Sequence record: NC_070983.1
DNA length: 64,000 nucleotides
Reading direction: 5' to 3' (one strand)
DNA from: Escherichia phage IME267
In this document: one piece after another, positions 1-64,000 of the stretch
How the letters are laid out: each line of letters opens with the position of its first letter
Position numbering within the stretch: the stretch's first letter is position 1
The notes under the pieces: model-generated
The model's database searches: none
Told to the model about the DNA's origin: nothing
What the model saw: the letters and a program-made list of their open reading frames with translations, nothing else
Made by a program: the position numbers and the translations under genes

Positions 1-1
1 T

Positions 2-271
2 TCAGGGTGTCTTGGTCTTAATTCTGATGCAGGATGGGGTGGTGTAGATGGAGGTTTTGAAATCCCAATAGACCGAAACAAACAACCTAGAGTTTGGCTT
101 GACTATGAGGTTAAAGAGGATGGTTCTCTTTTAATTAAAACTTATCATAGAACCCATTCAACATCCCCAGCTTTTGCTAGAAACGAGTTGGAAGGTTTTT
201 CTGACGGAGACCCTGTTGACATTCCTAAGGATGCTTTCATTTCGGTTCGTGTTGAAATGCCTTCTAAGTAA
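2..271 (+). CDS. 3' end of a structural (tail-associated?) protein whose start lies upstream of the window
   Basis: Open frame 2 from the window edge to TAA at 269-271 (…ISVRVEMPSK*); followed by hairpin and the tail fibre gene. Confidence 0.35.
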   Translation, partial: SGCLGLNSDAGWGGVDGGFEIPIDRNKQPRVWLDYEVKEDGSLLIKTYHRTHSTSPAFARNELEGFSDGDPVDIPKDAFISVRVEMPSK

Positions 272-280
272 ATTAACAAT

Positions 281-300
281 GCTCCCTTCGGGGAGCTTTA
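281..300 (+). terminator. GC hairpin with UUCG tetraloop (GCTCCC-TTCG-GGGAGC) plus short T tract; weak terminator or processing site
   Basis: Perfect 6-bp stem with TTCG loop read directly; only 3 Ts follow. Confidence 0.3.
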
Positions 301-311
301 AGGAGATTTAA

Positions 312-2507
312 ATGTCTAGAGAATTAATGCCCAAATCTGGTATAATGATGCCTCATGTGGTAGTTACTAGAGATGCCGCAGTAGTGGGTGTATCTACTGT
401 AGATGGGGCCGCTGGTGCTATCAACTTAACAGAAAAATACCTTCAGAAGTCTGACGCTGAAGCAACCTATCAAACGAAAGCAGAAGGGGCTACTAAGCAA
501 TATGTAACCGATGCTATTAACCCCATTATGACGAATGCTCTTTTTAAAGATGACCCCTTTGTCAATAATGACACACCTATCCGCTCCGGTGGTGGTAATG
601 GTGTTGAATCAGTAGACATGATTAAAGTCACTCCTGAGAATAATATCAAACTGGGGAGCTATGCTTCTTCTGTTCAGGGGGTTGAGATTCATTCTGCTGG
701 TCGTCTTCAGGTTGTTGATCAGAACGATTCTGGAGTCGAAACTAAATACCCGATATACTCCAAAAGGTATCGCCCGGAAGTTGAGGATTTACCTTTCGCT
801 TCAATCGGTTCCTACGTCAAAGATTCCAAAGGACGCACTATTGGTGTAACTCGTACTGGTATCAACTCTGATATCAAACAACTTACCCAGAAGGTAACTT
901 TCACTCAACCCGTTACTGTTCCTGATGCAGTTGGTGATTATGATGCGGTTACTTTGAGACAGCTTCGAAACAGCGGTGGTGGTTCTGGTGGTCCTACAAT
1001 GAGTGGAATTTCTAACTTTGGGATTGGGGATTTTCATTTACGTGATAGTCGTGCTTTTATTCCAGCTTTTGAAGTTGTGTCTGACGGGCAGCTTTTGAAT
1101 CGTGCTGACTATCCAGATCTGTGGGCTTATGCACAATTATTGTCACCTATAGAGGATTCAGAGTGGCTTTCTGACAAGTTTAAGCGTGGTCGGTACAGTA
1201 CGGGGGATGGTACTACAACCTTCCGTGTACCTGACAGAAACGGCATTCAGGCTGGTTCTGTACGCGCTCTATATGGTCGTGGTGATGGTGGGTCCAGTTC
1301 TGCTAACGGAGACATATTCGAATCCGCCGCACCAAACATCTGGGCGCGGACGGCAAGCTACTCCGGTTCCAGCTATGCACAGGTTTTTGGTGATATAGCG
1401 CAGGGTGCCTTCGTAGCGGATAACACGCTGTTCCCTGCTGCTGCTGGTGATGCTATCCCAGATACAGGCGCAATCGCTATCTCTGGGCGCTATAACACAC
1501 TGACCTTTGACGCATCTCGTTCAAGCCCTATTTATGGCGGGTCCGTTGATGAGATTATGGGTCGTAACTTTGTAGGTGTTTGGACTATTCGTGCTCATGG
1601 AGGTTTTACTGCTGCTAACACCTCTTGGTCTGTTATTAACAGTGACACAAACCGTCCTGCTGGTGGAACTCGGGTAACTAGCGGTTCAGTTGTTTCTGAA
1701 TATAAAATTGGTTCAGAAGTAGAAGCCTCTACTACGCTCCAAACTGATGCTTATATCGACGGAGCTTATTATGGGATTATCAATGTTTATAATAAAACCA
1801 AAGGAGTTACCAAGCAATTAGCTTTTGACGATTCTGGAACCCTGAACTCTGATAGATATGTTGCTCGGTCTAGAACATTGATGTCTTGGAGTGAAACAGG
1901 AAGTCGCAGAGGGACGTTTTCTATAGACAACCAAGGGGTTGGTGCTAACTACTCTTTTAACTCTATACTGAGTGCTTCCCAAGCATCCCAAGGTGGATAC
2001 AAAACTACTACCCATGTAGGGATGATTCACAATGATGCTGGATCTTTTGCTGATTCCTGTTGGCATGTTTCGGGAGATGAAGACAACAAATATGGTTGTC
2101 GTTTAACTCTCCGACCAAACAGGAACGAGATTTACTACTACACTTGGCAGCCAAGTTCAACCGGAACTTATACTCTTGCTATGAATCCTGTATCTGATGA
2201 AAAGTTGAAACATAACATCCAAGATATCTCTCCTGATGAAGCAATTCGTGCGATAAAAGGTTTGGATTTCAAATCGTTTGTGTACAACAATGATAATCAA
2301 GGAAGAACTCGTCGTGGTATCATTGCACAGCAGGCAGAGAAAGTTGAACCTCTTTATGTTAAAACTCGTAAATTCCATGACAACGATGGGGTAGAGCAGG
2401 AACAGAAAGAGTTGGATGCAACTCCAATGCTTTTAGATACCATGCAGGTTGTTCAAGATCTGCTGAAGCGTATTGAAGTTCTAGAAGCGAAGTTAGCAGA
2501 GAAGTGA
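312..2507 (+). CDS. Tail fibre protein with phage tail-collar region and C-terminal S74-type intramolecular chaperone (autoproteolytic) domain
   Basis: Collar-like segment (…DYPDLWAYAQLL…GDGTTTFRVPDRNG…); C-terminal …GLDFKSFVYNNDNQGRTRRGIIAQQAEKVEPLYV… typical of endosialidase-type chaperone domains. Confidence 0.75.
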   Translation: MSRELMPKSGIMMPHVVVTRDAAVVGVSTVDGAAGAINLTEKYLQKSDAEATYQTKAEGATKQYVTDAINPIMTNALFKDDPFVNNDTPIRSGGGNGVESVDMIKVTPENNIKLGSYASSVQGVEIHSAGRLQVVDQNDSGVETKYPIYSKRYRPEVEDLPFASIGSYVKDSKGRTIGVTRTGINSDIKQLTQKVTFTQPVTVPDAVGDYDAVTLRQLRNSGGGSGGPTMSGISNFGIGDFHLRDSRAFIPAFEVVSDGQLLNRADYPDLWAYAQLLSPIEDSEWLSDKFKRGRYSTGDGTTTFRVPDRNGIQAGSVRALYGRGDGGSSSANGDIFESAAPNIWARTASYSGSSYAQVFGDIAQGAFVADNTLFPAAAGDAIPDTGAIAISGRYNTLTFDASRSSPIYGGSVDEIMGRNFVGVWTIRAHGGFTAANTSWSVINSDTNRPAGGTRVTSGSVVSEYKIGSEVEASTTLQTDAYIDGAYYGIINVYNKTKGVTKQLAFDDSGTLNSDRYVARSRTLMSWSETGSRRGTFSIDNQGVGANYSFNSILSASQASQGGYKTTTHVGMIHNDAGSFADSCWHVSGDEDNKYGCRLTLRPNRNEIYYYTWQPSSTGTYTLAMNPVSDEKLKHNIQDISPDEAIRAIKGLDFKSFVYNNDNQGRTRRGIIAQQAEKVEPLYVKTRKFHDNDGVEQEQKELDATPMLLDTMQVVQDLLKRIEVLEAKLAEK

Positions 2508-2511
2508 GATA

Positions 2512-2532
2512 AGCCCCTTCGGGGGCTTTTAG
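2512..2532 (+). terminator. Intrinsic terminator-like hairpin (AGCCCC-TTCG-GGGGCT + TTTT) after tail fibre gene
   Basis: Perfect stem, UUCG tetraloop, T tract. Confidence 0.5.
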
Positions 2533-2596
2533 GAGTGAAACTGGTGAATAAGTAATGAAACTACTATATCCAAAAGGAAAATGAAAGGAGAAGAAA

Positions 2597-2815
2597 ATGA
2601 AAATGATGAAACAGGTAACTTATGGTCTAGCTTGCTTAGGGACAGGTTTTGTGATTTCCACAGCAGTACCTGTAAATGCAGTAGGCTCTCATTCTACTAT
2701 AGAAGCTCCTGTAGAGAAGCTTAGTTCTCAATGTAAACAAAGGACCATTCAAAATAATTTGGTTGTTATTTGCCCAGACGCTCAATCTTCAGCTCTGAGA
2801 AAAATTCTTCCTTAA
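2597..2815 (+). CDS. Small membrane/secreted protein, possible holin
   Basis: 72 aa, one N-terminal hydrophobic helix, immediately upstream of lysozyme gene; strong RBS. Confidence 0.3.
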   Translation: MKMMKQVTYGLACLGTGFVISTAVPVNAVGSHSTIEAPVEKLSSQCKQRTIQNNLVVICPDAQSSALRKILP

Positions 2816-2848
2816 TTGACCTAAAATAACAACAAAAGGAGGTCAAAG

Positions 2849-3340
2849 ATGGACGCTATCGCATTGCCGCCTGTACAGATGAGCCTAAGTCCGGCTGGTA
2901 TGGAGTTTATCATGAAGCATGAAGGCATGAGAACTAAAGCCTATAAAGACTCCGCTGGAATCTGGACTATATGTGTAGGGGCTACGCGCGATATGAATGG
3001 GTATCCAGTAAGACAAGGATTAACGTATTCTATAGAGGATTGTCTAGCTCTGCTAGATAGAGACACACAAGACTCTGTTCGTGCTACTCAGAAAAACATA
3101 AGAGTTCCTATGCTAGCTCATGAATTTGATGCTGTCACTTCTTTCAACTTTAATGTTGGTGGTGGTGCTTTGTCAGCTTCAAAACTTAGGAAAGTGATCA
3201 ACGGAGATGTGAAGGGTGATGTTTACTCAGAGTTCTTACGTTGGGATAAGATAACTGTTAAAGGTGTAAAGCAGCGGAGTCCGGGACTTCACAATCGCAG
3301 GGTTGCAGAAGCAAATCTATACACTACAGGAAAATATTAA
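2849..3340 (+). CDS. Lysozyme (GH24, T4/lambda-R-like muramidase); probable endolysin
   Basis: Motif …EFIMKHEGMRTKAYKDSAGIWTICVGAT… matches catalytic Glu and Gly-rich region of GH24 lysozymes; RBS AAAGGAGG. Confidence 0.8.
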   Translation: MDAIALPPVQMSLSPAGMEFIMKHEGMRTKAYKDSAGIWTICVGATRDMNGYPVRQGLTYSIEDCLALLDRDTQDSVRATQKNIRVPMLAHEFDAVTSFNFNVGGGALSASKLRKVINGDVKGDVYSEFLRWDKITVKGVKQRSPGLHNRRVAEANLYTTGKY

Positions 3341-31199: not shown

Positions 31200-31675
31200 T
31201 CCAAAACCCTTTCTTCTAAATCATAAAAGATTTGATTTGTCCCATTATTCTCAACAAGCGCTGTTCCATTATCTAGCAGGGTAGCAACTTGGGAATAAGG
31301 AATGTTCTTTAACATCAGAGCATTAATGGTCGGCTTGTTTTTGAAGTAAGCGACAGGCTCAACATAGAAGGAAATCCCACGACTTCCTTTAATTGGGGTG
31401 CTTGAAGATAGAACCCAAATTGTTTCTGGCTTGTCTATTTCCTTTTCAACACCAACCTCAACAAGAGAGTCAGCAGCGAAACCTACAGGACGCCTAGAAG
31501 AACCAAGCAACCGAACATATCCCGGTAATTTTGACATATTAGACCAACTACCAGTGTTTTCATTAAACACAGGTCTTACATCACCATATGCCCAAACCAG
31601 ATTATCATAGTCACGGGCTATGTATTTAACCCAATCAGGAACATCATACTCCCTTCCTTCAAAAATAGCTTTCAT
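31196..31675 (-). CDS. Hypothetical protein
   Basis: 159-aa ORF coupled to neighbours. Confidence 0.35.
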   Translation of the reverse strand: MKAIFEGREYDVPDWVKYIARDYDNLVWAYGDVRPVFNENTGSWSNMSKLPGYVRLLGSSRRPVGFAADSLVEVGVEKEIDKPETIWVLSSSTPIKGSRGISFYVEPVAYFKNKPTINALMLKNIPYSQVATLLDNGTALVENNGTNQIFYDLEERVLE

Positions 31676-53763: not shown

Positions 53764-53839
53764 TGGTGCACCCTACAGGACTCGAACCTGTAACCAACGA
53801 CTTAGAAGGTCGCTGCTCTGTCCGTTGAGCTAAGGGTGC
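53764..53839 (-). tRNA. tRNA-Arg(UCU): tRNA-Arg (anticodon UCU), 76 nt with encoded CCA
   Basis: Hand-folded cloverleaf: 7-bp acceptor stem, D arm, anticodon loop CTTCTAA, T arm ACAGG-TTCGAGT-CCTGT, 3' ACCA. Confidence 0.8.
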
Positions 53840-57971: not shown

Positions 57972-58415
57972 TTACTTAACTCTTGCTGTTTTGAGTGGGT
58001 CAATATATTTTTCAACTCCCCACTTATGTTTACTATCAGCGTAGAAAACATCAGGTGCACATTGGCTAGTAGTAGGGAATGCTTTCGGCGGCTTAGTGCT
58101 ACCTTTATTCTTCTGCTTACCTTTAGTGCGACCGTTGCAGAAGATTTCTAAACGCTTTTCTTGTTCCGTTTTCGCCGCCCCGTTGATTAACAAGGAACGC
58201 TTGTGATCAGCAAGAAGAAGCGCATCAGCACGATGAACACGACGACCTAGTACCTTTGGTACAGGAGATTCTTTATGTTCTTGAGCGGCCTGTTTCATAG
58301 CCCTGCGTTTAAGGCTACGTTTGCTAATATGGTTAACAGCGGCTGGCTTTTCTTTTTCCAGCTCATTCATAGAGAACACTCGTCCGCCTTTCATGCTGAT
58401 TTTAGATTTAGCCAT
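57972..58415 (-). CDS. Basic hypothetical protein
   Basis: 147-aa Lys/Arg-rich ORF. Confidence 0.35.
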   Translation of the reverse strand: MAKSKISMKGGRVFSMNELEKEKPAAVNHISKRSLKRRAMKQAAQEHKESPVPKVLGRRVHRADALLLADHKRSLLINGAAKTEQEKRLEIFCNGRTKGKQKNKGSTKPPKAFPTTSQCAPDVFYADSKHKWGVEKYIDPLKTARVK

Positions 58416-58694
58416 TGTTTTATTCCTTTCGCTGATAAATTATATCGTGCAAGCCTTACCACATAGCAAGGCTTAACCAAATAACTTAATCAATTAAACT
58501 AAACGATTTCCAACTACGTGTAATTGCTACCTTTTCGCCATCAAAGAGAACACTTACAGAGATCAGTTTACCGCGACAACTGGATACCGTGGTAATACGT
58601 CCGGTTAATGCCTTACCTTTATTCAGGTAGTGATAGCGGACACGACGTCCTAACAAACGAGTAGCTTTCTTCTCTAACGTGCTTAAGCTGGTCA

Positions 58695-58916
58695 TTAAAT
58701 AGCCCCTTTATATTGGAGTGATCTTACACGACGATACATAACAGTTGATGCACTAATCGCCGCTTGTTTTCTTTCGTGCTCATGCTGATTCTTTCGAATC
58801 TTATCCATCTCGGCATCATTACGACGACGTTGTAAGATTCTGCTACATTTGCGATGGTTATTATTAGCACGTGCTTTCTTACAGATAGGGCAAAGGTGGG
58901 ATTGAGTTAAAATCAT
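58695..58916 (-). CDS. Small basic protein with CxxC motif
   Basis: …HLCPICKK…. Confidence 0.3.
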   Translation of the reverse strand: MILTQSHLCPICKKARANNNHRKCSRILQRRRNDAEMDKIRKNQHEHERKQAAISASTVMYRRVRSLQYKGAI

Positions 58917-59245
58917 TTGCGAAGCCCTAACTTACGAAGTAGACGACCTAACTTAGTTTCCTGCGTAATGGTGTAGGTAACAGAGTTTTCGATTAACGCT
59001 TGTTCTTGAATCGGCGACGGATACCATTCACCGGTAAGGATGCATTTGCATTCGATTCCATATCTATCGGTTTTACGATAGGTCATATTGTTTAAGATAT
59101 TACGATACATCTTAACTTCTGTTTTCAATTTTGGCATGGTGATCATCTCTTTTTAGTTTCTTTGATTAGCACACTGAATCAATGCACTAGTAAAAGAAAA
59201 GGCGCTACCCTTTCGAATAGCGCCTTACTTGTTCTTTATTGTGGG

Positions 59246-60157
59246 TTATGCAGCTTGTTGGCGTGCCGCCATAATCTCGGCAGCTTTGCGTAACACTTCC
59301 TCTTCTTCCTGCGCAGCTTTCTCATTAGCTTTGACAGTTGAAGCGTTTGAGATACGACCGCGAAGGTTAGACAATTTTTCAGTCATTTCATTGATCACCT
59401 TTTCCATTTCATCGGCGTACGAGTCCAGAGATTCAAGCTCTTTAGTTGAGGCATTAATCAGGTAGTCATCGCTGATAGAAACAGTTGAAGCGGTTACTTT
59501 CTTAAGGAGTGAATCGAAAGTTTTCTTAACTTTGCCTACTTCTTCACTCAATGCGATAGTATTGTCAGAAGATGCGCCGTTGCGTTCATCTGCCAGTAGT
59601 GCCGCTTCAATACGGATTGCAGCCAGACGGTCAACCAGTGCATAAATATCCTGATTAAAGTTTTCGTTAACCTTCTGGTTGATCTGGTTTGCTACCGGAA
59701 CATTGTCGTTGCAACCTTTGTAGAATGCTGGGTTATCAACCTGCACGTCTTCACCTTTAGCAAAGCGTTCAAAGGAATTAGACCAGCGGGCGCGGTTTTG
59801 TTCCATTTTGGCCTTAACTTGTTCCGGTTTAGCATCCTCTTTCGCTTTCGCTTCACCTTCCAGATTAATCCATTTCTTTTTACCGTTCGCCCCGTCGCTG
59901 TTGTACTTGATAGGGGTTAAGAAAGAGATGGCAACCGCAATCACGTCTAAGTCACGATAACGCTCAGTTAACAAGAAATCAACCGCCGCCTGCAATACAT
60001 CCAGTTTCTTACCGTTGGTGCGGAAGTGTTGCAAATGGCCTAACAGGAAGTTAGAAACATCTTGTTTGATTGCCGCGTTGTTGCTACGAATGTTGTTAGC
60101 CAGTGCATTAAAGCCGGATTCGTTAACCAGATTAAAAACTTTAGCCATGATATTCAC
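59246..60157 (-). CDS. Hypothetical early protein (helical, 303 aa); first sizeable ORF downstream of the early promoter region
   Basis: Long ORF in the - frame. Confidence 0.4.
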   Translation of the reverse strand: MNIMAKVFNLVNESGFNALANNIRSNNAAIKQDVSNFLLGHLQHFRTNGKKLDVLQAAVDFLLTERYRDLDVIAVAISFLTPIKYNSDGANGKKKWINLEGEAKAKEDAKPEQVKAKMEQNRARWSNSFERFAKGEDVQVDNPAFYKGCNDNVPVANQINQKVNENFNQDIYALVDRLAAIRIEAALLADERNGASSDNTIALSEEVGKVKKTFDSLLKKVTASTVSISDDYLINASTKELESLDSYADEMEKVINEMTEKLSNLRGRISNASTVKANEKAAQEEEEVLRKAAEIMAARQQAA

Positions 60158-61066
60158 CTTTCAACTGTAAGGGCACTATGCCCCGCTCTCTATGAGCTTT
60201 TTAAGTCACTATTGACTTATCAATAATCACTCAATATCAAGTAATTATTGATAAGCGAGGCGGTCTTATCAGGAGTTAACCTTGCCGCCTCCTTATCCGT
60301 GATGTTTCATCTGGTATCTTTAATTAGTCGCTATAAATAAAGCCGACCTGATAGCGATGATCAATCATCACAATAAGGCAGTGCGTCCGACTCTATTTAA
60401 TTACTTTATCGTAACCGTCGGCAATATCGTCTACTTTGCTTTCGCTCCCGCCTATCCTTTTGTACTAACTCTCAATCGCTAACCATCGCCCACTACGGGA
60501 GGTTATTGCGAAAGAGTCATTAGCCGTCTAATACATTGACGTTTTATATCTTTCAGCAGGTTTACTACATAAACTGATTATGTACGCCATCAATAGTGGC
60601 CTCAAATCATTCACATCGTAAACGTTCACACTAAACCTTATTGTTAAATAGCAATTTGCCACTTTTTAACCATTCACCGCCGCCCCCAATTGAGCGTTAA
60701 TTCTTCGGGCTTGCCTACCCTGATTAACTTCTTTCACTGTAGCGCCTTGTTAGCGATGACCGCCGCTACCCTTAACCGTGGGCGATTAGCTTAAGTCTTT
60801 GCGTACACTCAATGAATCCGTTTATCAGTGGTGACGTTTCCAGCAAGGGATTATAAGATTGTTTTCTCTGATAGTTTAGAGAATCTTACACCGTTTTATC
60901 TGGTATGTTATCCGATGGTTATTATCATCTAACATATTCAACCGATATAGGAGAATGTTTAAATTATTAAAGAGCGGTAAATCTATCAGTGTACTTTCTC
61001 ACACTATGCAACTGTTAGCCGTTGTTACGCTTTTCACTGAAGCGGTGATTTGCTTAGTGAGTGCTC

Positions 61067-61095
61067 ATTATGAATCATGTTGTTTTCGCTGTCAA
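61067..61095 (-). promoter_or_regulatory. Near-consensus sigma70-type promoter on - strand (TTGACA-17-CATAAT)
   Basis: -35 TTGACA (rc of 61090-61095), 17-nt spacer, -10 CATAAT (rc of 61067-61072). Confidence 0.5.
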
Positions 61096-61379
61096 CCACT
61101 TTTTAATCTTTTTTCGTCGTTCCCGCTATTGGGAGGATATATCAATCAGCTTTATTTGATTGAAGACTAAGCGGTGATGCTTATCTTATGATTCATATTG
61201 TTAAAGAGCGGTTACTACATTTACAGCTTAACACATCGTGTTAGCTTGTCAAACTCTTTTTATCATCTTCTTTTAATTCCTTTCCCTTATCTCGCGTGAA
61301 TCTATGCGAAAGGGCAAGATGATAAGTTTTTAAAGAGCGGGATATTTCACGTCATCGCTGACTATGCTCACTATATATC

Positions 61380-61408
61380 AGGCTGTTTTCGGTGTCAATA
61401 CTCTTTTT
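61380..61408 (-). promoter_or_regulatory. Near-consensus sigma70-type promoter on - strand (TTGACA-17-TATAGT)
   Basis: -35 TTGACA (rc of 61403-61408), 17-nt spacer, -10 TATAGT (rc of 61380-61385); homologous to the 61067-61095 promoter. Confidence 0.5.
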
Positions 61409-61509
61409 AAGAATATTTTCACTTTCTAGCCTGATTTTTAAAGAGCGGGGCAAGTGGTAAACCTGCCTTGTATGTTTTACATCGTACCCGATGAATTGAA
61501 GTATACATT

Positions 61510-61537
61510 AACCAATGACGGTTGCAATAGGGTAAAG
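61510..61537 (-). promoter_or_regulatory. Promoter-like element on - strand (TTGCAA-16-TATACT) overlapping a TAATGTATA motif
   Basis: Read directly; could be sigma70-type or phage-sigma-type. Confidence 0.35.
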
Positions 61538-61689
61538 CAAAATATTTTAAACTTTTTCACTATAGGAAGGTAAAAGAGCGGGAGCGCGTGATACATCATA
61601 GGAAACGGCATGTAAAGTGATATTTAGCGGCCTAAAACGCACTATAGCGAGCTAAAAGGGAGTAAGGCATACAATCACCTCATAAAAGA

Positions 61690-61722
61690 GAAAAGCCTCA
61701 CTAGGAGGCTTACAGGAAGGAT
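61690..61722 (-). terminator. Terminator-like hairpin on - strand after 61788..62153
   Basis: AAGCCTC-CTAGT-GAGGCTT followed by TTCTCTTTTAT. Confidence 0.45.
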
Positions 61723-61787
61723 TTAAAGCATCAGATAGATTATGACCATAGGCATGACCACGGCACAATACAGGAGAAAGATTAGTC

Positions 61788-62153
61788 CTATGGATTTACA
61801 CATTGACCGTTACCGGATGCCATTTCATTCATGGACTCATCAAAGAGCGTTAACGATGAGCGCATCAAGTGATCGACCGTGATTTGTTTACCAGTGGATT
61901 CATTTACCAGTTGAATAGTTTTATCATATGATTGCACATGATCGAAATCATTTACATGCAAAATAATAACTTTAGGTGACTTTTTACCGGTATCATAATT
62001 TTCTATCAAATAGGTGCACTGTAAACCTTCCACCGTAGCAGGGGAAAATGTTGCAGCCTTAACGCTACCCATAGCCGATAACAGGACACCTAACAGAAGA
62101 ACAACCAGAAAGAAGCCTACAACCGTTTTAACGATGAATTTAATAAACCACAT
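61788..62153 (-). CDS. Membrane-anchored / secreted hypothetical protein
   Basis: N-terminal hydrophobic helix (…VVGFFLVVLLLGVLLSAMG…). Confidence 0.4.
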   Translation of the reverse strand: MWFIKFIVKTVVGFFLVVLLLGVLLSAMGSVKAATFSPATVEGLQCTYLIENYDTGKKSPKVIILHVNDFDHVQSYDKTIQLVNESTGKQITVDHLMRSSLTLFDESMNEMASGNGQCVNP

Positions 62154-62256
62154 AGCAATAAACCTCTTAATTAAAGAACGTAAGAATAAAGCATATCAGC
62201 GACGAATAACGCCACTGTAACAACGAACAAGCAACGCCAAAAATAATCATGAATCA

Positions 62257-62529
62257 CTAGTTGCTATCCTCGCCAAAAAATGCTACGCTAACCTGTTCCA
62301 CTTCTTCCAGCGACAGAAGAATCCCACGTTGGGCTAAATACTTCCCAATAGTTAGATAATCTTGCACTAAGCAGACAATAGGAAAGCGTATATTTTGTAT
62401 CTCACCTTTGGAAAGAAAAGACAAATAACCAACGTCGGTTGATTCATCAAAGGATAGTGTAACGCCACCGTAATTATGCGTATCAATTAACGCGATAGTT
62501 TCATTTCCCATAACGTTTCCAATCCTCAT
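62257..62529 (-). CDS. Small hypothetical protein
   Basis: Overlapping-stop operon with neighbours. Confidence 0.35.
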   Translation of the reverse strand: MRIGNVMGNETIALIDTHNYGGVTLSFDESTDVGYLSFLSKGEIQNIRFPIVCLVQDYLTIGKYLAQRGILLSLEEVEQVSVAFFGEDSN

Positions 62530-62731
62530 AATGATTAACTAGTGCCTGATAATCATCAGATGATAACTCACCGCCTAAATAGGCAACGGTTATGCGTGCT
62601 TTGTATTCTGACAAGCTGCATAGCGCGGGAGCGGATAACCTGCTTTCGCCATAACATCCTAGCACTTCAACGATACAACCGTTTAAAGATACTGATTTAT
62701 TAATCACAATACGGTTAGCCATTAATATCAC
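62501..62731 (-). CDS. Small hypothetical protein
   Basis: Coupled ORF. Confidence 0.35.
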   Translation of the reverse strand: MILMANRIVINKSVSLNGCIVEVLGCYGESRLSAPALCSLSEYKARITVAYLGGELSSDDYQALVNHYEDWKRYGK

Positions 62732-62978
62732 CCTTAATTAGTCCATGATTGAGCAGGTTAACCAGTGACAAGTCACCGTCAATGTAGATTGATTTGAAAT
62801 CTTCACGGGTAATTTCGAAATCAGCAAAGGCTAGCCAGTCTTTAAGAGGCTGATATTCCATCCTGCAAAAAGTGATAACAGGCAAGATTATCTGACCATC
62901 AAGTGTATTAAACATGATAGAGCTTCCACCAACAAAACAAGAAAAACCGTTAGATAATTTAACTTCTTTAATAGCCAT
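62715..62978 (-). CDS. Small hypothetical protein
   Basis: Coupled ORF. Confidence 0.35.
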   Translation of the reverse strand: MAIKEVKLSNGFSCFVGGSSIMFNTLDGQIILPVITFCRMEYQPLKDWLAFADFEITREDFKSIYIDGDLSLVNLLNHGLIKGDING

Positions 62979-63004
62979 TTTTTACACTCCCAAAAATAGA
63001 TTAT

Positions 63005-63496
63005 TTACTTACTAGCCTTAATACAGTTGGCTAAATTAACGTGAACAGTATAAACAGCATTATCAGCATTATTGTAAACAGTGGTGGCAAGTATTGATTC
63101 ATTCATCTGACCATAACTCACCAGATTCGTGACAGCTTTCGCATGGCTGTAACGTTGTACAGTACCAAAAGTAACTAGTTCGGGATCGTTATCACTACGC
63201 TTTAAGACTAAATCTTCGTTGCCCTGATTATCCAGTGTTTTAGTACTAACAACCAGACCACTGCGGGAAACGTTACTAAATTTAACCTTTAAAACTACTT
63301 GATTAGTATCACTATCCGCACCGTTGCAAATCATCCAACCTTTATTGATGGAACTAACAAAGACGTCAGCGGCATTAGTTGCAGGAGCAGGACTAGCGAT
63401 AGCCTTATCAGAAAGAGATGTGACCAGTGCACTAACACCGATCGCTGCAACCAGTGCATAACTTGCCAGATTAACTACCTGCATTGCTTTAGCCAT
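63005..63496 (-). CDS. Secreted hypothetical protein; first gene of the - strand early block in this window
   Basis: Signal peptide with AXA-like site (…SDKAIA|SP…); preceded by a sigma70-like promoter and AAGGAA RBS. Confidence 0.45.
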   Translation of the reverse strand: MAKAMQVVNLASYALVAAIGVSALVTSLSDKAIASPAPATNAADVFVSSINKGWMICNGADSDTNQVVLKVKFSNVSRSGLVVSTKTLDNQGNEDLVLKRSDNDPELVTFGTVQRYSHAKAVTNLVSYGQMNESILATTVYNNADNAVYTVHVNLANCIKASK

Positions 63497-63534
63497 TTCG
63501 TTATTCCTTAGATAGATTCAATCAACTGTCATCA

Positions 63535-63562
63535 ACTATATATTAAAGGAAAAACCTGTCAA
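63535..63562 (-). promoter_or_regulatory. Near-consensus sigma70-type promoter on - strand (TTGACA-16-TATAGT) upstream of 63005..63496
   Basis: -35 rc of 63557-63562, -10 rc of 63535-63540; about 35 nt upstream of the start codon. Confidence 0.5.
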
Positions 63563-64000
63563 CCATTTATTTTCTAACTTTTTCATAACTCACTGAATAC
63601 TAAAGGAATTTAATTTACTAAATTTTCTATACTCAGGGTATCAGCTTACTAGCTATTGTTACTTTATAACACCAATTCTACGGGCAGCAGACCAACAGAC
63701 CAGGACACGGGGAGCATACAACCGCAGGGTAGACCACGGGGAAACATAGCAAGATAGTGCGGTAATAATATACCACTTAAATAATCATCAACTCATAAAA
63801 GAAAAAGACCAACAGAACGCTGAAAAAAGAAAAGAATAAAAGAAATACAATCATCCACTTAATTAATACATACATCATTATTGCACTCATAACAATCACT
63901 ATTGAAACTATTTACATTCAAACTATGGGGGAAGAGGGTAGTAACTAGGGGGTATTATTAGCACTTCTATTGTCACTATGACTACGCCTTATACAGTGCT

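Follow-up and report, generated by a model that had tools for sequence, protein, structure and literature searches.

The window analysed here, a stretch of 64,000 nucleotides from Escherichia phage IME267 (sequence record NC_070983.1), is that of a phiEco32-like coliphage of the Gordonclarkvirinae. Between its homologues of gp124 and gp125 lies a spacer with relatives, at 76-95% identity, in 95-96 phages of Escherichia coli and Shigella that belong to the phiEco32 group (Kuravirus and Suseptimavirus). The spacer is conserved in 96 records, and its equivalent in phiEco32 is a 1944-bp CDS-free gap from phi32_124 to phi32_125. Since the early genes here all read leftward, the minus strand was taken as the sense strand. 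The genes and terminator-like hairpins that frame the spacer are as follows.

59199-59226, minus strand: strong intrinsic-terminator-like hairpin with a 12-bp stem, predicted to end the RNA-gp124 unit
59246-60148, minus strand: gp124 homologue of 300 amino acids (phrog_13018), with its true start at the ATG at 60148, directly 3' of the RNA
61693-61711, minus strand: intrinsic-terminator-like hairpin with a 7-bp stem and a T-run tail, TTCTCTTTTA, from a sequence scan
61788-62153, minus strand: gp125 homologue, on the other flank of the spacer

The hairpin at 61693-61711 is predicted to end the upstream gp128-gp125 early unit, and the records of SU10 and 4E8 carry an annotated terminator at the same place. 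The hairpin beyond gp124 is likewise annotated in SU7 and 4E8. No terminator lies between the structured RNA described below and gp124, which the RNA always abuts. The gp124 homologue itself gave no informative match by family or by fold, and the region holds no tRNA or tmRNA.

A preliminary description of the same DNA had called the spacer free of credible ORFs, and the comparison bears this out: 17 phages share no conserved sense-strand ORF of at least 30 codons. In the alignment of these phages, variable columns are spread over the three codon phases as 133/115/126 (p=0.52), with no 3-base periodicity, while the adjacent gp124 CDS gives 76/50/239 (p=3e-38). That the spacer holds unannotated small proteins can therefore hardly be entertained. 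The GenBank record of CHD5UKE1 (MZ234028 / NC_070989) does have 10 ORFs called in it, but most of the records listed annotate nothing there, codon periodicity and a shared ORF are both absent, and the alignment gaps are mostly of 1 nt. Annotators should regard the spacer as not empty and should not fill it with small ORFs.

Four sigma70 promoter-like sites were recognized on the sense strand.

61067-61095, minus strand: strong proximal promoter of the sigma70 type, TTGACA-17-CATAAT, 11/12, shared by 17/17 close relatives
61225-61252, minus strand: decayed promoter, TTGACA-16-TAAGCT, read from the sequence and compared with relatives
61370-61398, minus strand: strong sigma70 promoter, TTGACA-17-TATAGT, 11/12, its corresponding place occupied in relatives
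61500-61527, minus strand: weak sigma70-like promoter, TTGCAA-16-TATACT, overlapping the exact TAATGTATA

Both near-perfect promoters of the preliminary description exist; the first lies where it was placed, and the second, put at 61380-61408, was 10 nt off and belongs at 61398-61370. The third, weaker promoter that it mentioned corresponds to the site at 61527-61500. A simple scan of the region gave 12 promoter-like sites against 15.5 in shuffles and thus no excess, so the weight of the promoters rests on their near-consensus quality and their conservation. By a criterion of near-consensus hexamers 16-18 nt apart, promoters scoring 10-12 of 12 stand at corresponding places in 26 other phages. 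The weak sites of the window also have counterparts: by module order, that at 61500-61527 is TTGACA-16-TAATAT in phiEco32, SU10 and PH444, and the decayed one at 61225-61252 is TTGACA-16-TAGAAT or TTGACA-17-TATACT in SU7, EK010 and Bas94. The start predicted for the proximal promoter (about 61060) is some 910 nt from the gp124 ATG at 60148, in keeping with the distance of about 900 nt that had been given for the first long ORF. The promoters of the spacer are real and were previously published for phiEco32 and SU10; SU10, like phiEco32, has three sigma70 promoters between the gp124 and gp125 homologues and a terminator after the gp125 homologue (PMC4281155). The reading as a multi-promoter early region for host RNA polymerase is thus sound and already in the literature (PMC4281155).

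A middle or late promoter for gp36, the phage sigma factor, was considered at the exact TAATGTATA (61510-61502). This sequence does not occur in any of the 16 other close phages, nor is it one of the six known tAATGTAtA sites. The candidate was dropped because TAATGTATA is specific to the window.

Alternating with the promoters is a short repeated motif, which on the sense strand reads CCGCTCTTTAA. Its copies, and a hairpin beside the first of them, are listed here with the name that their sequence suggests.

60964-60975, minus strand: boxA copy 1 (proximal), GCTCTTTAATAA, directly 5' of the structured RNA
60988-61005, minus strand: small hairpin with three covarying pairs, AGUGUG-AGAAAG-(U)ACACU, some 10 nt upstream of boxA copy 1
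61198-61209, minus strand: boxA copy 2, GCTCTTTAACAA, the same as the boxA core of E. coli rrn
61327-61338, minus strand: boxA copy 3, GCTCTTTAAAAA, about 25 nt downstream of a predicted start site
61435-61446, minus strand: boxA copy 4, GCTCTTTAAAAA, a consensus match
61570-61581, minus strand: degenerate boxA-like fifth copy, CGCTCTTTTACC, which fails the boxA consensus

The motif had been described as five copies of a 10-mer at irregular spacings of 108-234 nt. The spacings were indeed 234, 129, 108 and 133 nt, and TAAAGAGCGG occurs exactly four times on the plus strand (60968, 61202, 61331 and 61439), but the fifth copy (61572) has one mismatch. With one mismatch allowed, TAAAGAGCGG was weakly enriched over the whole window (8 found and 3.4 expected). 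Conservation in relatives also held in part: a shifted core is kept and the 'CC/GG' end of the 10-mer is not. In 17 close and then 10 distant phages the invariant part proved to be GCTCTTTAA[A/C/T]AA, that is, GCTCTTTAA followed by N-A-A, the bases on the 5' side of the G being variable. It agrees at every position with the rRNA boxA consensus GYTCTTTAANA, which was derived for gamma-proteobacteria (PMC5725501). On the strength of this match, the repeated motif is identified as boxA, the host rRNA anti-termination signal.

Several counts support the identification. In the 64 kb, GCTCTTTAAHAA has four matches, all on the minus strand at 60964-61446, where 0.09 were expected and none of 100 shuffles reached as many. 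GYTCTTTAANA itself has five matches in the window, four of them, all perfect, at 60965-61446 on the minus strand. Across 27 phages there are 100 exact 9-nt cores, 2-5 per phage, of which 100 are sense and 0 antisense. Positions that took no part in the selection are still rrn-like among the 83 distinct sites of these phages: position -1 is C or T in 79 of 83, and positions +10 and +11 are A in 83 of 83, the other flanks being variable. The degenerate fifth copy is shared with IMEP8. The hairpin at 60988-61005 occupies the place that boxB has in rrn leaders.

Each of the four boxA copies in the window is preceded by a promoter-like site, two of them near-consensus and two weak; in relatives the copies alternate with TTGACA promoters and lie about 17-85 nt below the predicted start. 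Paralogous promoter-boxA modules are dissimilar except in the boxA core and the promoter hexamers, whereas orthologous modules are conserved between phages. The copies are on the transcribed strand, downstream of predicted promoters and upstream of untranslated RNA, in agreement with the earlier expectation that the motif would be transcribed in the leaders.

The same facts bear on a simpler account, in which the spacer is a plain early control region with promoters for early mRNAs, the motif is a DNA operator for some regulator of phage or host origin, perhaps one shutting off early transcription, and the leader is functionless. The motif adjoins every promoter, and phiEco32 is known to shut off sigma70 transcription via gp79, although gp79 acts on RNA polymerase and not on DNA. 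A DNA operator is nevertheless improbable, as the motif always lies downstream of the start by about 17-85 nt, in the 100 to 0 orientation given above, and equals host rrn boxA including the unselected flanks; the precedent in T7, moreover, is an RNA element. Nor is the leader inert, because it contains 75 covarying pairs. The suggestion that the motif is a binding site for a regulator at the DNA level thus found no support, the sites being always sense, downstream of the start and identical to boxA.

A second alternative accepts the boxA identity but regards the copies as decoys, which on abundant transcripts would titrate NusB, NusE and SuhB away from host rrn and so aid host shut-off more than they protect phage transcripts. 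The 2-5 copies per phage on transcripts from near-consensus promoters, all fitting the high-affinity consensus, would suit such a role. One boxA per promoter, however, is what would be expected for loading each initiating polymerase, and distant relatives manage with 2-3 copies. As the principal function a decoy appears rather unlikely; as an additional one it is possible, since it is compatible with the main reading set out below.

Between the proximal boxA and gp124 lies the largest feature of the locus, with two domains that were modelled separately.

60149-60963, minus strand: large structured non-coding RNA and gp124 leader, 232 predicted pairs in 37 helices, from covariation, strand bias and z-score
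60200-60369, minus strand: 3' domain, modelled as R1 with 48 bp, conserved more widely than any other part of the RNA
60711-60837, minus strand: 5' three-way-junction domain (model R2), conserved in 17 close phages and weak or absent in distant relatives

The preliminary description had included a structured leader among its guesses and had proposed a covariance analysis, which answered in favour of that guess. Sense-strand sequences running from the proximal boxA up to the start of gp124 (60990-60149) were aligned for 17 phages, and RNAalifold returned 232 pairs in 37 helices. Of the aligned cells, 98.9% are paired, and 75 pairs (297 cells) show compensatory changes on both sides. When the 3' partners were slid by 1-3 columns, only 8-12 compensatory pairs (16-22 cells) remained; in this control the structure has an advantage, having been predicted and scored on the same 17-phage alignment. 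None of 500 shuffles reached the observed covariation values. The signal is specific to one strand: there are 439 G-U cells and 10 A-C cells, all the sequences have G-U at seven of the pairs, and the consensus energy is -246 kcal/mol in the sense direction and -152 in the antisense direction. The RNA of the window itself folds at -250.5 kcal/mol, compared with -203 ± 6 for shuffles (z=-7.8). The leader of about 830 nt is one large structured non-coding RNA; it is well supported and apparently undescribed.

The first helix of the fold begins directly 3' of boxA, and the sense strand is G-rich and C-poor (195 G and 143 C). A single-stranded loop of 21 nt in the 3' domain, CAAGGTTAACTCCTGATAAGA (60285-60265), is invariant save for one substitution in TH42. 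CCWGATRARAC, likewise conserved and single-stranded, occurs three times in the RNA and nowhere else in the 64 kb, and two small covarying hairpins (helices 36 and 37) stand just upstream of the gp124 Shine-Dalgarno sequence. A helix 1 that would join the boxA flank to the gp124 Shine-Dalgarno sequence in a 'leader-trailer' closure was rejected, because it shows no variation in the close phages, where it is invariant, and is not maintained in the distant ones, where it is lost.

Searches of known families were negative. With Rfam at E<=1, positions 58000-64000 gave nothing inside the region and one weak match (E 0.18) downstream of gp124. With Rfam 15 (4227 models, GOLLD, ROOL, introns and riboswitches among them) at E<=10, positions 60100-61750 gave only matches far below the gathering scores. 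A blastn search of the RNA against 5426 E. coli genomes returned zero matches.

The strand bias of the conservation also bears on whether the region is a replication origin, where promoter transcripts would yield an R-loop or primer or the repeats would serve as iterons. Origins of T7 and T4 are transcription-dependent, and here strong promoters lie within an ORF-free region that holds the lowest-GC stretch (20% GC, about 60198-60255). Against this, the DnaA box TTWTNCACA has zero occurrences in 60149-61790, and the repeat families of the region are those of the promoters and boxA, with no others that could be iterons. Conservation, moreover, tracks RNA pairing, tolerates G-U and does so on one strand only, which fits selection on a folded transcript and not on a DNA site. 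An origin, one of the options first raised for this region, is therefore unsupported and very improbable.

Uncultured phages provided an independent test. Homologues of gp124 at 45-70% identity were found on uncultured phage contigs, some of 80-100 kb, and ten such metagenomic relatives were examined, none of which had been used to derive the RNA structure. In every one of them, no gene is called over 1.4-3.4 kb immediately 5' of the gp124 homologue (in locus L024 over 1.0 kb, on disregarding a call of 71 aa). Each of the ten also has a sense boxA at -870 to -936 with 1-2 further copies upstream, and in most of them the proximal boxA follows a detected TTGACA promoter. An nhmmer profile built from the 17-phage alignment matched the leader in the four distant loci tested (4/4) and in two short duplicate contigs (E 4e-93 to 1e-11).

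The R1 covariance model found a full-length match at the right place in 10 of 10 relatives (E 1e-13 to 1e-32). Full-length R1 matches thus occur in 27/27 phages, and there is none in phage 7-11. In the 27-sequence alignment 40 of 48 pairs are compensatory and 97.7% of cells are paired, with 9-14 pairs in slid controls; this alignment was fitted to the model, so the covariation count leans on it. In an alignment made from sequence only, the distant RNAs keep 60-81% of the 232 pairs against a background of about 35-46%, the central and 3' helices being best kept. The R2 model with default filters had no match in the distant relatives; with filters off, weak matches at the right place appeared in three of four loci in which gp124 is 65-70% identical.

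The RNA appears not to extend beyond this group. An exact-pattern scan of IMG/VR with the 21-nt loop found three contigs, all phiEco32-like, and tblastn of gp124 against the phage collection returned the same 96 records and none more distant. On these searches, the RNA family is apparently confined to phiEco32-like phages and their uncultured relatives. Salmonella phage 7-11 is distantly related, belongs to a different family and follows the same genome strategy; at its early end boxA is absent, and no match to the RNA reached significance. In all 27 loci examined the RNA and gp124 are linked, and among phage records the RNA occurs in 95-96 and gp124 in 96. So strict a linkage suggests that the two work together.

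The locus is best read as an early unit that resembles an rRNA operon, in which boxA would recruit host Nus factors so that a long untranslated RNA is made and folded as far as gp124; we assign this reading a probability of about 0.7. Host RNA polymerase would start leftward on the minus strand at two near-consensus and two weaker sigma70 promoter-like sites, and each start would soon expose, about 20-85 nt on, the boxA RNA element GCUCUUUAA[A/C/U]AA. The nascent boxA would be bound by host NusB-NusE(S10) and so nucleate an anti-termination complex of Nus factors, on the pattern of rrn operons and of the early region of T7. The polymerase so modified would resist Rho-dependent termination, to which some 900 nt of untranslated RNA would otherwise make it liable, and it may also aid co-transcriptional folding. 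The predicted product is a multi-domain RNA of about 830 nt that runs from the proximal boxA into the gp124 ribosome-binding site, and the intrinsic terminator 3' of gp124 (59226-59199) would close the unit.

In this model the promoters, the identity, orientation and conservation of boxA, the structure, strand and non-coding nature of the RNA and its linkage to gp124 stand at the level of sequence. We infer the role of the RNA and, from the precedents of rrn, T7 and CRISPR, the Nus binding, Rho protection and chaperone effect. Anti-termination complexes of the rRNA type resist Rho on untranslated RNA and help long-range RNA folding; recruitment of Nus factors by boxA would thus enable polymerase to complete and fold a long untranslated RNA. 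The sense RNA is possibly a poor Rho substrate in any case, being G-rich, C-poor and heavily paired. Anti-termination of the rrn type is weak on intrinsic terminators, and boxA alone may thus not explain read-through into the approximately 55 downstream early genes. Counting against the model are phage 7-11, which is without boxA, the 5' RNA domain, which is undetectable in the most distant relatives, and the closing helix 1, which was rejected.

As to what the RNA does, we would most readily guess that it is made early and in abundance and serves, with or on gp124, as a structural or regulatory RNA. A purely cis-acting 5' UTR, which would govern translation or stability of the gp124 mRNA and have no role in trans, is a minor but serious possibility. 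The constant adjacency to gp124 with no intervening terminator, and the covarying hairpins just upstream of the Shine-Dalgarno sequence, would be natural in such an element. A length of about 830-950 nt with 37 helices, however, far exceeds the needs of known translational control elements, helix 1, which would sequester the Shine-Dalgarno sequence, is not kept in distant relatives, and the conserved loops and the three CCWGATRARAC copies point to ligand or tertiary contacts. Somewhat more probable, though still tentative, is the proposal that the RNA belongs to a new class of large, ornate phage RNAs that act in trans, either by themselves or in a particle that includes gp124. The phage would make it in bulk by using, through a boxA at each promoter, the rRNA anti-termination and RNA-folding machinery of the host. 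Such a role could lie in host takeover, counter-defence or assembly.

Phages of the phiEco32 type are common and serve in phage therapy work. The BASEL collection now includes them; the BASEL work called their molecular biology poorly studied. The identity of the motif as boxA and of the 'long leader' as a large structured RNA appear to be new. No mention of boxA together with phiEco32 was found in the literature searched, a set that excludes the two original phiEco32 papers, which may already note it. The arrangement of one boxA per promoter likewise appears new, no description of it having been found in the same literature. If the rRNA-operon-like reading is true, the locus would be a clean natural instance in which a virus has copied the design of the rRNA operon, with its tandem promoters and boxA, for a long non-coding RNA. 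It would also offer a new family of large structured RNAs, of a size that suits cryo-EM and for which E. coli K-12 provides ready genetics. In the 7-11 paper an anti-termination strategy was considered 'highly likely' but 'undefined', and boxA would then be a candidate for it, limited to the phiEco32 subgroup because 7-11, the subject of that remark, has no boxA.

Among large phage-associated RNAs, GOLLD and ROOL share with this one a length of about 600-900 nt and many covarying helices. The RNA described here differs from them in having no Rfam match, in belonging to virulent enterobacterial podophages, and in being fused to an mRNA and preceded by boxA. The nut sites of lambda (boxA, boxB and N) are likewise phage-borne boxA elements in early transcripts. 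In lambda, boxA is weakened (CGCTCTTA) and depends on N that is bound at a boxB further downstream, whereas boxA in the window fits the consensus fully and the only hairpin noted near it lies upstream. No hairpin of the lambda boxB type was noted downstream of boxA on reading the modules, and no N homologue was found among the neighbouring ORFs scanned.

T7, also virulent and a coliphage, has several strong early promoters of the host type and a consensus boxA in the transcribed leader; exact GCTCTTTAACAA lies 63 nt after promoter A3. This boxA was reported to be a functional anti-terminator, and mutations in it were reported to matter for T7 (PMC3709561). T7 has one boxA after A1-A3 and about 100 nt to the first gene, while the phage of the window has one boxA per promoter and about 830 nt of structured RNA between. 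Use of the GYTCTTTAANA element outside rrn is also known from the suhB leader, with the same consensus (Baniulyte et al. 2017, PMC5725501), and from CRISPR arrays, upstream of which boxA protects long untranslated transcripts from Rho (Stringer et al. 2020, PMC7665894). Those elements are chromosomal and single-copy; the phage element is viral, multi-copy and placed ahead of a folded RNA.

The counterpart in the host is the rrn leader, whose TGCTCTTTAACAATTTATCAG lies upstream of 16S and was confirmed in every one of 5426 E. coli genomes, the median number of places being 7. In E. coli this leader has tandem P1 and P2 promoters, a boxB-boxA-boxC arrangement and a Nus-factor anti-termination complex. 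The phage modules differ in having no visible boxC (TGTGTGGG) and in their serial order, since rrn has one boxA after two promoters; the phage RNA has no relation to rRNA and continues into a protein-coding gene, and its Nus dependence is putative. Shared by both are tandem strong sigma70 promoters, the identical boxA GCTCTTTAACAA, which in one module of the relatives is part of a 20-nt match (GCTCTTTAACAATTTATCAG), a small hairpin just 5' of boxA, and a long structured untranslated RNA that starts directly after it.

The gp124 homologue of the window belongs with the Suseptimavirus type, represented by SU7 and Bas86 (97–100% identity), and the gp125 homologue shows 95.9% identity to that of phiEco32 (Kuravirus). 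The SU7/Bas86-type similarity ends approximately 1.19 kb into the gene-free spacer that separates the two genes. Judged by these sequence comparisons, window 59246-62153 is a mosaic, and the end of the similarity places a recombination junction among the modules in which a sigma70-like promoter is followed by boxA (GYTCTTTAANA).

The surroundings of the spacer also vary among relatives. In some records, the gp125–128-like block lies on the opposite side of gp120–gp124 or is missing (L006 IMEP8, L007 Bas94; L013 Bas92), and the phages that lack it constitute a 67–69 kb clade. Where the block is moved or missing, the unit of promoter, boxA and the large structured RNA of the gp124 leader is located directly at the genome end. 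Permutation of the records may account for part of these differences. Beyond their boxA modules, six distant relatives (L022, L025, L027, L028, L031 and L032; upstream positions 1-3000) have another 1.5–2 kb on the upstream side in which no genes are called.

Phage LAMP (L008) is the sole close phage with lowered pairing of the RNA (94%). In the central domain of its RNA, at approximately 2150-2260 of L008, there is a locally divergent stretch, together with about 34 additional bases that the alignment places as insertions of 21 and 11 nt.

Within the 64 kb, the motif CCWGATRARAC is confined to the RNA, where three copies (window 60263-60273, 60304-60314 and 60893-60903, - strand) were found against 0.28 expected. 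These copies are identical across the 17 close phages except for single changes in TH42 and IMEP8, and the motif could be one for protein binding or tertiary contact. The RNA also contains a boxA-like variant, GCTATTTAACAA (60641-60652, - strand), which is kept in all close phages, with one base differing in TH42. This variant is probably not a free boxA, because it is base-paired in predicted helices 14 and 15.

An exact promoter element of the phage sigma factor gp36, TAATGTATA (61502-61510, - strand), overlaps the weak sigma70-like promoter. Since the element was not found in the other 16 close phages, this copy is probably due to chance or is a lineage-specific feature. Far from the spacer, one more perfect GYTCTTTAANA match, GTTCTTTAACA (31304-31314, + strand), is consistent with chance (0.68 expected). 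Elsewhere in the window is a tRNA that has been reported in other phiEco32-like phages too:

53764-53839, - strand: tRNA-Arg (anticodon TCT)

Two small hairpins are predicted 5' of the proximal boxA:

60988-61005 and about 61008-61023, - strand: both hairpins, downstream of the proximal start site and upstream of boxA

One of them, AGUGUG-AGAAAG-ACACU, has three covarying pairs and is placed like the boxB of rrn leaders.
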